A stretch of DNA of 61,549 bases, the filler included, from Collodictyon triciliatum (Eukaryota), in NCBI GenBank assembly GCA_043381765.1. It is 10 parts of 10 records of this genome, joined end to end, with 100 filler letters (N's around TTAATTAATTAA, not from the genome) between each part and the next. Parts side by side here need not be neighbours in the genome. Positions count along the whole stretch, not along the records: positions 7,195 to 14,272 come from JBHJMP010004076.1; 9 more parts are not named here. One strand, written 5' to 3'. The notes beneath the pieces were generated by a model. It searched no databases. It was given only the letters and a program-made list of their open reading frames with translations, and had not been told where the DNA came from. Positions 8,969-14,272 of the stretch are shown in pieces; position 1 is the first letter of the stretch, and each line of letters starts with the position of its first letter. The position numbers and the translations under genes were made by a program.

Positions 8969-11900
8969 TTAAGCTGAGACTTTCTGTCTCCACTCAGCTC
9001 CTTTCTCGGTGTCCTTCTCAACACCCCATCCATTCTTGTAGCATTCAGCCATCATCTGAGCCTGGAACTTTGTGGACTTATTTTTCTCACAATAGGCAGC
9101 AAAGTCCGCATCAAAGGAAGCAGCACCGATTGAAAGTAGAAGGGATTTGTTGTATCGACTCAATCCTGCGACATTTCTGATTTGGATGTCTCCACCTTGC
9201 AGCTTTCTTGGGCCGATAATCTGGACTGTCTTTACATCTTGGATTCTGTTGGTATCAATCATGTTCATCGCATCACTTGTTCTGTTAAATACTGCGATGA
9301 ATTCGTCTGGCTTTTCTTTCCTGACAAGGTATTTTCCTTGGGTGTAGGTCACTTCTGATTTTTGCAGACTGTGTGTTTGGTTTCCTGAGGCTATATCCCA
9401 AATACGTATTGTGTTATCATAACTTCCAGAAGCCAACCAATTTTCACCATTCGGTCCTTGAATAGTGCAAACACTAGTGACAGGCCTTGTATGACCTTCT
9501 AATGTTTTGACTTCGTTTCCAGAGGCTACATCCCAAATACGTATTGTTTTATCAGGACTTCCAGAAGCCAGCCAGTTTTCACCATTCGGTCCTTGAATGC
9601 TGCAAACACTATTGACAGTCTCAGTATGACGTTCTAATGTTTTGATTTGGTTTCCTTCGGCTACATCCCAAACACGTATTGTGTTATCTCTACTTCCAGA
9701 AACCAGCCAATTTTCACCATTCGGTCCTTGAACGATATAAACACTCAAGACAGTCTCAGTATGTCCTTCTAATGTTTTGATTTGGTTTCCTGTGGCTACA
9801 TCCCAAATACGTATAGTTTTATCATCACTTCCAGAAGCCAGCCAATTTTCACCATTTGACCCTTGAATACTGCAAACACTCCTGACATAATCTCCATGTC
9901 CTTCTAATGTTTTGATTTGGTTTCCTGTGGCTACATCCCAAATACGTATTGTTTCATCATAACTTCCAGAAGCCAACCACTTTTCACCATTCGGCCCTTG
10001 AATACTGCAAACACTTTTGATACCATACGTATGTCCTTCTAATGTTTTGATTTGGTTTCCTGTGGCTACATCCCAAATGCGTATTGTTGTATCATCACTT
10101 CCAGAAACCAGCCAACTCTCACCATTCGACCCTTGAATACTGCAAACACTATAGATATAATTTGTATGACCTTCTAATGTTTTGATATGATTTCCTGTGG
10201 CTACATCCCAAATGCATATAGTTTTATCATCACTTCCAGAAGCCAACCACTTTTCACCATTCGGCCCTTGAATACTGCAAACACTTTTGATACCATATGT
10301 ATGTCCTTCTAATGTTTTGATTTCGTTTCCTGTGGCTACATCCCAAATACGTATTGTTTTATCATGACTTCCAGAAACCAGCCAATTTTCACCATTCGGT
10401 CCTTGAATACTGCAAACACTATAGATATAATTTGTATGACCTTCTAATGTTTTGATATGATTTCCTGTGGCTATATCCCAAATACGCATTGTTTTATCAT
10501 CACTTCCAGATGCCAGCCATATTTCACCATTCGGTCCTTGAAAACTGCAAACACTCATGACATAGCTTGTATGACCCTCTAGTTCATCATGAAGAATTCC
10601 TAATTTCACACTATTCATATTCGCATTATCAAAAACACAATCACCAAGCATCGAATTCGTGAAATCAACACCATCCAAGTTGGCACCAGTGAGATTTGCA
10701 CCATCAAGGATTGAGTTACTGAGATTCGCATGTGGAATTTTGATGTTTGATAAATCCATTCCACCAAACGAAACATTCATTAAATTCAAAAGTGTGATTC
10801 CATCAGATGCAGCCTTCGATTTGCTCTCATCAGTCTTTGACATGTAGACAATTCTGAATAACGATGCAATGATTTGCTCAAGATTCCATTCCTCATCTAG
10901 TTTTGCATCATCAAGAGTTTCACAGATGAATTCCTTGACTCTTGTAAACTCGACAGACTCTTTGTTGATTCCGATTTCTTTTGAATGGACGGACAAGTAT
11001 TTGCACGAGTTTAATGTTCTGGAGTGAATCCATCCGAGTTTATCAGCGAATCTTTCTCTCATCTCAGCCCAGAATACCACTGCTTCGTTGTGCTGCATCA
11101 GTTCCTTGTAAATCTTGTCGATTTCCTCACAGCTGTTGCATATTGCAAGATAATCCATGGAGTAAAGCTTTCTGAATAAATGAATCAGCGTTCTGTAAAG
11201 CTGAATGAGTGTTTCATGCTCTTTCTTGTCATTCATGAGTCGGATAATGTTGTCAATCTGTGGGCCATCTTTCAGTGATATGATTGTCTTCGTCTCCTTT
11301 CTGATAGCAGCTGCCTTCTGGAAGTACTCAACGACTTGGTCCAATCTAAATGCATGCATATTAGTTTTATTTATTCATGTTTTTTATAACTATTAATAAT
11401 AATAATAATCGATTTTTTAATATAAAAGAGAAATCACCTTTTCAGCTCAAAGTTTGTTCTGCCAACATTCTCAAGAGAAGTCGCATAATCTGCATGCTTT
11501 TCGCCCAGTGTTCTCACGCGAATATCCTTCGTCTTTGCATACGCCTCCAAAGCACCCTTAAAACTACGATAATATGGGTAAATACATTATTCTTTTCAAT
11601 TAAATATATAAATATAATTCATAAAGAGATACTCCTTCAAATCATGGCTGATGTCTCCAATCATTTCATAGCAGGCCACAACATTCGGATGATTTTCACC
11701 AAGGGCAGACATGAAAATATCCAGTGATTGCTTTAGTGAGGATAAGGCCTCACTTTTCCTATATAAGATAGTAATTTGATATTTATTTAATTGATTATAT
11801 TATATAATAAAATTAACTCCAAATAGAGTCCATACAATGAAAGATATGATGCCAAATATATTTTGCAAAAATTGATATAGAAAAATTATTGTTGTATGAA

Positions 11901-14272
11901 AATAATCTAAAATCGATAGAACCGAACTTTTCGCTGGCAAGATGAACACTTGCAATAAACTGGATTGTCGAGGCAACAGATGCATGCTTGGCTCCAAGCG
12001 ATTTTTCAAGGATTGATTTCGCTTTTTTGTAGTTTTCAATAGATTCTTCATACCTCGGTGATTCAATCATATTAATATTTCTCAAATTATAAGTAGATTT
12101 AAAACCAGTTAAATGGATGAATATGCTACTTTTTCCCAGCCAGAGAGACATGGCCGTAGTTCTGGTACGATGTTGCGACAAGAGGATGCTCGTTTCCGAC
12201 TTTCTTTTGGCGGATTTCCATGGCCTTTGTGTATTCAACCAGAGCTTCCTCATTCCTATCATAAAAAATTGATCAGCATACTTATATATTTACAAAATAA
12301 AGGCAGAATGTTAAAGAATATAAATAATCAAATATTACTTTGACTGCTTCACGTATATGTCTCCGAAACGGTCATGTGATTGGGCCACTTGCAGGTCGTT
12401 CTCGCCCAGCTGTTTGACTCTAAAGTCCAGTGATTTCTTGTATTCATCAAGAGCTTCATCGATTCTGTTTCATAAAAATTTTTTAGAATAATTCCTTTTT
12501 GAAACATTATTCATAATTTATTTTACGATGGAAGAGAGCCTTACTTGTCTTGTTGCTGGTAGATAATTCCCATCTCTTCATGAATGGTGGCAATACGCAG
12601 GAAATTATCTGCATTTTTCTCAACTAAATCGAGACATTTCTTATAGTAGACCATGGACTCAGCCCAGCTGTTTAATTTATTTTTATTTTAGAAAAGTTTG
12701 CATTATAAACATCATGTCATGTCCTAATTATATCATTAATGTTTTTATATTTTTTTACTTTTGAAGGTTCTTGTAGACACGACCAAGATTAAGGTAATCA
12801 GCCGACTTCGCATCTATGAATTAATAGATTATTGAATGTCTTCATAGATATCTAATCTTCACGACATACATTAATCATCAAAAAATAATAAATTTTATAC
12901 CTTCTGTTTGATGCTTTCCAAGACGCACATTCAGAACAGATAACAAGAACGTGTTCTCAAAAGACTCCAAGAAAAATCCAACCAGCAGGTCTCCCACATT
13001 ATCCAAAGACTGAAAATAATAATAATTAATAGATAAATCATGATTAATAATTTAATTCGTGAGTGGTAGCCTTCAAAAAATTAAAATTAAATAATAAAAT
13101 ACCTTAGCCAAGCTTCCATACGCATCCTTGTAGTTTGCCGCCCCACTTGCGTTGATTGCTCTCCAGCATGTAAAGAACTCGTAGCGATAGCGACCACCGA
13201 GCATGATGCTGATAACCTATAAAATACAAAAATTAATAAGTGAAAGACATTTCATTGAGTGAAAAAAATTAAATAAAAATAAAAAATTACATGTTTTTGC
13301 TTCATGTATTCCACAAGCAAGTCAAACGAACTGCCCTTCAGAAGCTGGTAGCAAATCTCAGCAGCAAGCTCCTCATCCACATCAACAGCCTCAGAATACT
13401 GGCCAAACAGCCATTTTCCGTATTTTTCGTGCGTTTTTTCCATCTCCTGGTTTTCGGAGAAGTATACCTTTTCGGTGGTCTCCAGTAGCAGCTGGTGGAA
13501 GTACATGTATCTATGATAGACAATAGTTAGCTTTACATCCAAAATAAATTGTACCGAAAGCACCGATTAACGAACGAAAAGGATGAGAAATAACACTAAC
13601 CTTCCATTGCGGACGAAAAGCGACTCGATGAGGGTAAAGAAGAAGGATTTCCTATTTGAATGAATGAAAGATAATTTAAATAAAAAATGAGAAAAGAGAA
13701 AGAGTTAGCCTATTCATTCTATTAAAATTCAATACTAAGTAAACCATTCAGCAAGCTCAAATCCTGTGCCAATCGCATCTTTCATGTACTTGTCCAGGTC
13801 ACCTTCACTAAGGCCAATGCGGGAGACAAAGAGAACCTTCATCGAGAGGGATACGTACTCGACCTTCATTGCCTCTTTTCCATCAGACGTGGCGACTGTA
13901 CAATTAAGATAAGTATTCAACAAAAATAGCTATTATAATTTGAATTATTTTTTTTTATGAAATATGTACAATCAATACTCACCTTTCCTGTCAAACTTCA
14001 GTTGCCAGCGCTTGATAATGAGAGTGTAAAGCTCAATGACGCCGTTGGTTGAAAGCAGCGTAAACAGTTCATCGTCAAGCTTCTCATAGACTCCAAAGAC
14101 CCTGACTTCATCCAGAATAATGCGGAGATAGAGTGGATGGCCTAGGATAAAATTTCAGATAATGAATAACTAATCAATCCTTATATGATTTAATAAAAAT
14201 ATACACTCTTATGATAATGCCTCACCAGTATCCTCCAGGTCAGCCAGAATCATTGCAACTTGCTTTTCGTTC
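8969..14272 (-). CDS. Multi-exon STAND/NACHT-like (NPHP3/TEP1-type helical region) - TPR - pentapeptide - 9xWD40 - Sel1 protein; 5' end truncated
   Basis: Upstream exons give HPLYLRIILDEVRVFGVYEKLDD, VSRIGLSEGDL and YMYFHQLL, resembling post-NTPase helical domains. Six TPR exons (12667-11438) splice in frame to a terminal exon 11345-8969 carrying pentapeptide, WD40 and Sel1-like motifs. The P-loop itself is not in the window. Confidence 0.8.
9368..10582 (-). repeat. Nine tandem 135-nt (45-aa) near-identical WD40 repeats
   Basis: Consensus LEGHTxxVxSVCSIQGPNGENWLASGSxDxTIRIWDVATGNQIKT; DNA period is 135 nt. Confidence 0.95.

Follow-up and report, generated by a model that had tools for sequence, protein, structure and literature searches.

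Descriptions of NOD-like receptor (NLR)-like proteins abound for animals, plants, fungi and bacteria but are scarce for small protist supergroups. In TEP1, NWD1, NWD2 and NPHP3, a DUF4062 domain beside the NACHT domain is described as a TIR-like NADase, and it has been speculated that WD40 repeats sense a signal that leads to NACHT oligomerisation and in turn to NADase activation (bioRxiv 10.64898/2026.05.01.722283, accessible part of the text). The accessible sections of PMC11291939 report receptors of NACHT-pentapeptide repeat-WD40 (NACHT-PPR-WD40) architecture that passed from Mycoavidus to Mortierellomycota, and those of PMC4986451 describe fungal NLRs with homogenised repeats that vary in few columns and with tetratricopeptide repeats (TPRs) usually of 42 residues. 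Here we compare with these systems a gene of the flagellate Collodictyon triciliatum, found in a joined stretch of 61,549 nucleotides from assembly GCA_043381765.1 (the window) and contained in the part at 7195-14272, from record JBHJMP010004076.1. A preliminary description of this DNA had proposed that it encodes a chimeric receptor with several kinds of repeat.

We consider it likely that the locus is a functional receptor gene of the signal transduction ATPases with numerous domains (STAND)/NLR-like type in a CRuMs protist close to Diphylleia rotans, and that its composite sensor arose by domain shuffling. The full protein would run from a CH domain through DUF4062 (a TIR-like NADase), a NACHT-like NTPase, a winged-helix/helical domain and six to seven TPRs to a helical linker, a pentapeptide beta-helix, one or more WD40 propellers and a cap with a single Sel1-like repeat, an order drawn from colinear homology with P0016, a protein of that freshwater flagellate. 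In the shuffling that we propose, an NPHP3-type DUF4062-NACHT-TPR gene would have acquired the helix-pentapeptide-WD40-cap cassette of a NACHT-pentapeptide-WD40 gene, with the fusion seam inside the present long exon and not at intron 14.

Results

A spliced gene colinear with a Diphylleia transcript

Relatives were collected with HMMER from 1.84 billion representatives, searched in full, with local comparisons made on the 150 best hits or on 266 stored proteins. The top four were P0016 (2619 aa, 1444 bits), P0017, P0055 and P0037, all of them Trinity open reading frames (ORFs) from the EukProt transcriptome of D. rotans, in which relatives form at least four clusters at 50% identity. By tblastn, P0016 residues 831-2613 are colinear with 14271-8975, and the same search of the 61.5-kb stretch gave no second copy of a P0016-like gene. 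The receptor gene lies on the minus strand inside the piece 7195-14272, in which there is no N at all. Its 15 exons run from 14272 down to 8969 and are separated by 14 introns, all of them GT-AG, of 69-169 nt and GC content 0.15-0.33 (exons, 0.39-0.51); joined, the exons give 1344 open codons terminated by a stop, with the 5' end cut at the piece edge at 14272. We take the gene to be real and spliced, with its 3' two-thirds at this locus; what is missing, measured against P0016, is the N-terminal ~830 aa. Its features are as follows.

14272-14226, minus strand: exon 1 (partial); the frame runs off the piece, and P0016 residue 831 falls at 14271 by tblastn
12901..14141, minus strand: exons 2-7 overall, the NACHT-associated winged-helix/helical region (GHPLYLRIILDEVRVFG...), from the gene model and identity to P0016
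14141-13983, 13895-13745, 13651-13601, minus strand: exons 2, 3 and 4
13510-13291, 13216-13103, 13009-12901, minus strand: exons 5, 6 and 7
11438..12813, minus strand: exons 8-14 overall, kinesin light chain (KLC)/NPHP3-type 42-aa TPR units
12813-12759, 12667-12545, 12464-12339, 12255-12130, minus strand: exons 8, 9, 10 and 11
12053-11928, 11758-11633, 11563-11438, minus strand: exons 12, 13 and 14
11437-11346, minus strand: intron 14, 92 nt, GT-AG, phase 2 (AG|A), GC 0.16
11345-8969, minus strand: exon 15 (the long exon), 2377 bp including the stop, open throughout
10880..11345, minus strand: start of exon 15, one further TPR-type unit and the helical linker, from the 42-aa register and the AlphaFold2 model
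10589..10879, minus strand: cassette head, a conserved helix (SKTDESKSKAASDGITLLN) and pentapeptide-repeat beta-helix, from PF00805 and the head alignment and hidden Markov model (HMM)
9368..10582, minus strand: nine 45-aa WD40 repeats (135-bp units), from Pfam and Tandem Repeats Finder
8969..9367, minus strand: C-terminal tail and stop with the cap motif (GGDIQIRNVAGLSRYNKSLLLSIGAAS), and a Sel1-like repeat at 8990-9055

The preliminary description had drawn an intron-dense upstream half joined through a phase-2 intron at 11346-11437 to a single intronless exon of 2.4 kb, and the gene model agrees with it on all of these points, the codon at intron 14 being split after its second base.

Upstream of the shared region, P0016 carries a CH domain (43.4 bits) and DUF4062 (42.4 bits, cut-off 24.7, residues 379-470). 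Its residues ~618-845 match NACHT at 24.8 bits (cut-off 26.7), nSTAND1 at 24.2 (27.1) and NPHP3_N at 22.5 (24.8), and AESGIGKS, a motif spotted by eye, fits the looser Walker A pattern [AG]xxxxGK[ST]. An NTPase had been expected upstream of the fragment, and with DUF4062 and a NACHT-like P-loop placed just before the common region in P0016, one is very likely encoded there. Among the top WD40 hits besides P0016, eight share its DUF4062 segment and nine its NTPase segment. P0037 has the head, WD40 repeats and tail without KLC-type TPR units; the motif GDEGSGKT lies at its residue 670, and blastp found no counterpart in it for the DUF4062/NTPase part of P0016. The Pfam list of P0175, a DUF4062 protein from a Methanoperedens metagenome-assembled genome (MAG), includes NPHP3_N, nSTAND1 and WD40 families, and a DUF4062-STAND-WD40 combination therefore occurs outside the Diphylleia lineage.

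The helical region and the TPR array

Residues 1-300 of the receptor model are 61% identical over 300 aa to P0016 831-1120 (blastp against the 150 best hits), a segment that directly follows the NACHT-like NTPase of P0016. The earlier reading of this part as an NPHP3/TEP1-like helical region rests on this identity; exons 2, 3, 5, 6 and 7, each scanned singly, gave no Pfam match. The array that follows consists of six or seven repeated TPR units that keep a 42-aa register and match TPR_12, as expected of the KLC/NPHP3 type. When the TPR-unit exons 9-14 were scanned singly, five of the six matched TPR_12 (E 1e-5 to 6e-4) and exon 9 did not; these scores lie under the cut-off because one exon covers half of the 77-position model. 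The homologous region of P0016 scores 136.7 bits with TPR_12 and 65.4 with TPR_NPHP3, below the latter's cut-off of 100.

Exons 10-14 measure 126 bp each, encode one 42-residue unit each and are each followed by a phase-2 intron, intron 14 being one more member of the TPR intron series. The succession of a helical/winged-helix domain adjoining the NTPase and then TPR, pentapeptide and WD40 repeats is that of a STAND-type protein, and it accords with the proposal of an NLR/STAND-like protein with more than one type of repeat in its sensor arm.

The long exon

The 801-aa ORF of the long exon matches WD40 (PF00400) in nine stretches (E 3.9e-91, 296 bits), and its first 265 residues match Pentapeptide (PF00805) at 42.4 bits against a cut-off of 20.2, so that both the nine WD40 repeats and the pentapeptide repeats of the preliminary description are recovered. 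Its terminal Sel1-like repeat is recovered in part: a single partial repeat is present in the last 126 residues, and at 19.4 bits it falls under the cut-off of 30.7. Members of the Sel1-repeat family normally have several tandem repeats above that cut-off, and we call this repeat Sel1-like. The motif is conserved, with two terminal helices predicted; among the four D. rotans relatives, three tails match Sel1, at 25.4, 19.7 and 14.5 bits, and one does not. Two further relatives, P0223 and P0063, list Sel1 together with NACHT and pentapeptide families, and Sel1 with the cassette therefore occurs outside the Diphylleia lineage as well.

An AlphaFold2 model of the long-exon product, built from a 20-row alignment (mean predicted local distance difference test score, pLDDT, 80), places nine helices at residues 2-188, strands five residues apart at about 195-250 in the pentapeptide part (pLDDT 84-89), nine four-stranded blades at 262-660 (pLDDT about 90), a low-confidence loop at 662-716 and a helical end at 730-790. 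The four-stranded blades and the Pfam matches together identify the array as a WD40 beta-propeller.

The exon opens with another 42-aa TPR-type unit, which keeps the phase of the preceding TPR exons, and ~155 residues of helical, family-specific linker follow it. By blastp the linker was matched in only four of the 150 best hits, all from D. rotans and one of them partial, and the tail likewise in only four, all from D. rotans. Word-index searches with the linker returned only bacterial pentapeptide proteins or nothing, with no close relatives in that index at the word lengths used. An Atlas feature search on the linker found TPR-like clusters at a score of only 0.80, which we treat as a lead.

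Border and distribution of the cassette

In many HMMER hits the best stretch begins at residue 166-171 of the ORF, near 10880, and a 130-aa query around this point was matched by 18 of the 150 proteins (blastp). The heads of the receptor and 15 other proteins align, 16 in all, with the consensus ..SK.D.....AAANA.T.LN....F.G.DL..I.IP.A.LS; the receptor head is 25-39% identical to those outside its family, and an HMM of the head found 37 of the 266 stored proteins. After the WD40 array comes a cap, with the consensus GLxxxNxxLLxQxGA, that is common to other cassette proteins. Helix, pentapeptide repeats, WD40 array and cap can be treated as one cassette, whose predicted N-terminal border is near 10880, ~165 codons into the long exon.

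Carriers of the cassette are Glomeribacter, Entomortierella, Mortierella, Reticulomyxa and Paramecium, and further Nostoc, Nostochopsis, Oscillatoria, Sorangium and a Planctomycetes MAG. PF00805 stands in the Pfam lists of at least 39 of 120 relatives, including Nostoc, Oscillatoria, Sorangium, Mortierella and Reticulomyxa, and these lists bear out the earlier statement that pentapeptide and WD40 modules stand behind NACHT in cyanobacteria, a ciliate and fungi. For a scan of prokaryote genomes, a broad cassette alignment was dropped as too diverse; the narrow alignment used in its stead, of five Mycoavidus/Mortierella-type heads, is biased and uninformative on other phyla, and it confirmed 223 of 331 stretches, the best 80 of the 223 all lying in Mycoavidus cysteinexigens MAGs. 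One complete Mycoavidus ORF (L009) has ARM_5, NACHT (36.5 bits), Pentapeptide (46.2 bits) and then WD40, without TPR_12. The M. cysteinexigens MAGs (loci L001-L079) hold dozens of cassette loci per endosymbiont genome; in at least one of these loci, L006, the long ORF is broken, with only 562 aa open around the match, and this locus may be a pseudogene.

KLC-type TPR units, sought with an HMM built from the family, occur in three of the 150 best hits, and together with the cassette head in four of the 266 stored proteins, all from D. rotans in both cases. The NACHT-pentapeptide-WD40 architecture is widespread; the cassette placed behind a predicted NPHP3-type DUF4062-NACHT-TPR part was seen only in the Diphylleia family. 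In a tree of the heads, the receptor groups with P0016, P0017 and P0055 (support 95/98), and with P0037 added the support is 84/95; the tree has no root, and all its other branches lack resolution. P0037, a cassette protein without TPR units that branches as sister to the others, would fit an in-lineage fusion of a DUF4062-NACHT-TPR gene with a cassette-bearing gene, and it is possibly a plain NACHT-PPR-WD40 protein and an in-lineage source of the cassette.

Repeat homogeneity and base composition

Tandem Repeats Finder reports the WD40 array as 8.9 copies of a 135-bp unit with 86% matches and no indels, and the nine units are 78-94% identical in DNA and 67-91% in protein. Six columns (6, 7, 9, 21, 28 and 30) hold at least four residues each; columns 7, 9 and 28 are positions that we take to be top-face contacts of WD40 blades.

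GC content at third codon positions (GC3) stands at 0.51 over exons 1-14 and at 0.48 over the opening 195 codons of the long exon; it drops to 0.31 in the pentapeptide repeats and 0.25 across the WD40 array and is back at 0.47 in the tail, and a sliding profile falls at model residue ~700 and recovers at ~1200. The head and first repeat differ from the rest of the gene at z -3.9 after stratification by amino acid, and the match between the bounds of low GC3 and those of the cassette is suggestive. Two long leucine-rich repeat (LRR) arrays elsewhere in the stretch have GC3 of 0.35-0.38, single-copy ORFs 0.44-0.51, and low GC3 may partly be a trait of repeat arrays in this genome. Mutation resembling repeat-induced point mutation was ruled out as a cause, as the units show no excess of C>T or G>A against their consensus (A>G 24, A>T 19, C>T 12, G>A 9).

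Transcript evidence

Contigs were aligned at a likeness of at least 85% from four sets: X1 and X2, taken by guess to be RNA; X9, a lake metatranscriptome; and X3, DNA. Joints with CT..AC ends correspond exactly to introns 12, 11, 10 and 8, and those for introns 14, 13, 9, 2 and 1 fit once a few unlike letters at the joint are allowed. At intron 14, the link between the TPR exons and the WD40 exon, the joint 11347>11444 has four unlike letters between its sides and a net 92 nt removed, in one X1 contig and two X2 contigs, and RNA-type contigs from close relatives thus join the TPR exons to the long exon. In X9 the joints are those of introns 13, 12, 9 and 8; the X3 DNA contigs show none of the listed joints and run through introns (12184-12455, for example). 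Receptor-family genes are therefore spliced as in the gene model, the expression of the present copy being a separate matter. Four further joints (13428>13566, 13632>13751, 12027>12140 and 13160>13318) do not fit introns and may come from paralogues or poor alignment.

At the same likeness, 622 X1 and 526 X2 contigs fall on the 7 kb, with a summed depth that is far higher over the WD40 part. Some RNA-type contigs skip 945 nt (7 x 135) within the WD40 array (9622>10568), which suggests paralogues or alleles that differ in repeat number; other skips within 9070-10570, of 1299 and 787 nt, are without explanation. No run contains half of the sampled words; those that contain some are metagenomes from freshwater and sediment, together with two small runs from coded organisms, and neither the small metagenome shares nor the uncovered parts count as habitat evidence.

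Other features of the window

The window chains pieces of ~7.07 kb through N44-TTAATTAATTAA-N44 spacers that recur about every 7.17 kb. Adjoining pieces are not genomic neighbours, and any gene read across a spacer is an artefact. The spacers and the other features are these.

7095-7194, 14273-14372, 21449-21548, 28641-28740, 35820-35919, 42989-43088, 50157-50256, 57323-57422, 60394-60493: spacers
7195-8690, minus strand: downstream neighbour of the receptor on the same strand, a coiled-coil-like ORF
14403-14648, minus strand: exon of a Ufd2/UBE4-type ubiquitin elongation factor (Ufd2P_core 48.9 bits), in another piece and unrelated to the receptor
5469-6365, plus strand: GDP-fucose O-fucosyltransferase, 45 bits (other piece)
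35922-39662 and 40457-42988, plus strand: LRR ORFs of 1247 and 844 codons with near-identical, homogenised repeats
46048-46461, plus strand: PP2C, 107 bits (other piece)
47633-49132, plus strand: protein kinase, PK_Tyr_Ser-Thr 109 bits (other piece)
61109-61543, plus strand: cytochrome bc1 hinge protein, 44 bits (other piece)

NHL repeats had been guessed by eye in the downstream neighbour, and no Pfam family was matched at E 0.001 in the two ORFs tested. LRR_8 scores 227 bits on the first 500 aa of an LRR ORF, and a gap of 548 N separates the two LRR ORFs.

Discussion

We propose that the locus encodes most of a STAND/NLR-like receptor in which the WD40 top face, perhaps together with the TPR solenoid, would capture a non-self or danger ligand. 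Capture would lift auto-inhibition and allow the NACHT domain to oligomerise, and the oligomer would turn on the N-terminal DUF4062 NADase to hydrolyse NAD+, a course of activation proposed for TEP1/NWD1 and known from Apaf-1. Several points weigh against this reading. Ligand, oligomerisation and NADase activity are all argued by analogy, and the gene fragment ends at 14272, before the NTPase and DUF4062. In P0016 all three STAND models fall just under their Pfam cut-offs, and the strict pattern GxxxxGK[ST] has no match. The type of cassette donor is an assumption, and P0197 and P0251 list TPR families together with PF00805, so the combination of TPRs and cassette may not be unique. The spliced contigs, at 85-99% likeness, may stem from paralogues, the RNA nature of X1 and X2 is a guess, and no read set proves transcription of the exact copy. 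The ratio of non-synonymous to synonymous differences (pN/pS) is 2.07 in the six variable WD40 columns and 0.36 in the other 39, a contrast that is circular, the columns having been selected for their variability.

How the cassette came to stand behind the TPRs can be read in more than one way. The preliminary description placed the seam at intron 14 and had the entire 2.4-kb exon grafted by retroposition or horizontal transfer onto an NTPase-TPR gene, and the exon does lack introns beside the 14 upstream and does drop in GC3 from about 0.5 to about 0.25. The drop sets in well inside the exon, however, and neither it nor the recovery follows an exon boundary; the exon starts with a TPR-type unit in the phase-2 register of the five preceding 126-bp exons and continues with a linker restricted to the receptor family; and homology to outside proteins begins only at ORF residue ~166-171. 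We therefore reject intron 14 as the graft seam. Because the TPR unit and linker stand ahead of the cassette in the same exon, retroposition of that exon is unlikely, and tandem duplication of an intron-free 135-bp unit would in any case keep the array intron-free without it; we regard the whole-exon graft as very unlikely. A narrower possibility, that the cassette alone was acquired horizontally, from bacteria or from a different eukaryote, before its fusion behind the TPRs, deserves more weight, though we still find it doubtful. The cassette is patchily spread over cyanobacteria, myxobacteria, Planctomycetes, Burkholderia-related endosymbionts, Mortierellomycota, Reticulomyxa and Paramecium, the accessible part of PMC11291939 gives a precedent in the Mycoavidus-to-Mortierellomycota transfer of NACHT-PPR-WD40 receptors, and low GC3 coincides with the cassette (the z of -3.9 above). 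Yet the rootless head tree groups the receptor with D. rotans proteins and lets no donor be named, identity to outside heads is just 25-39%, and the LRR arrays of the window show lowered GC3 too; moreover, the cassette is already common to paralogues that are about 47% identical, so any transfer would be old and the donor's composition should have faded.

Doubts of another kind concern what the gene is. That it is an assembly chimera or a dead pseudogene seems to us scarcely credible: the window is an artificial chain and the assembly is gapped elsewhere, but the piece itself is free of N, 1344 codons stay open across 14 canonical introns, and the model is colinear with the independently assembled transcript of a related organism. 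A non-immune housekeeping scaffold, perhaps serving signalling in the flagellum or cytoskeleton in the manner of NPHP3 and with the CH domain tying it to actin, is a more serious rival and yet an improbable one. The organism is a flagellate, scaffolds of many kinds use pentapeptide and WD40 repeats, and the NPHP3-like TPR and NPHP3_N signals (both sub-threshold) and the CH domain of P0016 point the same way. It sits badly with the many diverged copies, seen in the D. rotans clusters and in the hundreds of X1 and X2 contigs that are deepest over the WD40 part, and with repeats that are homogenised and vary in few columns, as the accessible sections of PMC4986451 describe for fungal NLR repeats.

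We therefore retain the reading of a shuffled STAND/NLR-like receptor. With its D. rotans relatives, the gene makes up a multi-copy family in a small protist supergroup, and it would unite in one protein two layouts that are each known, DUF4062-NACHT-TPR and NACHT-pentapeptide-WD40. Its repeats are homogenised and hypervariable in the way familiar from fungal genes for non-self recognition, and it would offer a clean example of sensor-cassette shuffling with the seam off the intron. Given the report of DUF4062 as an NADase, the family is also a case in which immunity or cell death through NAD depletion could be tested in a predator made of a single cell. A wider and more tentative idea, which we advance as speculation, is that the deep-branching, free-living CRuMs flagellates run their own diversifying NLR-type repertoire, in which an NPHP3-type NADase/NACHT/TPR gene was fused to a pentapeptide-WD40 cassette travelling horizontally among bacteria, fungi and protists. 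If true, it would give a two-sensor NADase receptor and make homogenisation with top-face hypervariability general beyond fungi.

Comparison with known systems

Among the papers listed in literature searches, none linked Diphylleia with NLRs by title or abstract, although supplementary tables may list such proteins. Apaf-1 offers a mechanistic template: like the putative receptor it combines a STAND NTPase with WD40 propellers at the C-terminus, which in Apaf-1 sense a protein ligand and gate oligomerisation (as far as the source's accessible text goes). It differs in an NB-ARC rather than NACHT-type NTPase, in its CARD effector and in having neither TPRs nor a pentapeptide segment. Fungal NLRs of the HET-E/NWD type share near-identical tandem WD40 repeats with few hypervariable positions, and 42-aa TPRs (PMC4986451, accessible sections); the receptor differs from them in coming from a CRuMs protist, in a 45-aa rather than 42-43-aa WD40 unit, in another effector and in two classes of repeat per protein.

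Closer still are the NACHT-PPR-WD40 proteins of Mycoavidus/Glomeribacter and Mortierellomycota, with similar ones in cyanobacteria, Sorangium, Reticulomyxa and Paramecium. The receptor shares with them the conserved helix and pentapeptides that immediately precede the WD40 repeats, as well as a similar cap motif behind these. In the Mycoavidus type, the cassette comes right after the NACHT helical domain and the N-terminus is ARM_5, whereas in the receptor six to seven TPR units and the ~155-aa linker intervene; and the predicted receptor NTPase, as seen in P0016, is linked to DUF4062, unlike theirs, and showed no blastp similarity at E 0.01 to the cassette-bearing bacterial hits.

With NPHP3, NWD1, NWD2 and TEP1, in the human layout given by the accessible part of bioRxiv 10.64898/2026.05.01.722283, P0016 has in common DUF4062, a NACHT-like NTPase, a helical domain and TPR_12/TPR_NPHP3-type repeats. 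The pentapeptide beta-helix link, the CH domains and the Sel1-like end are extra in the receptor family, and its signals with the NPHP3 models are below cut-off. In the same account NPHP3 has the TPRs, and NWD1, NWD2 and TEP1 have the WD40 repeats; the receptor has both.

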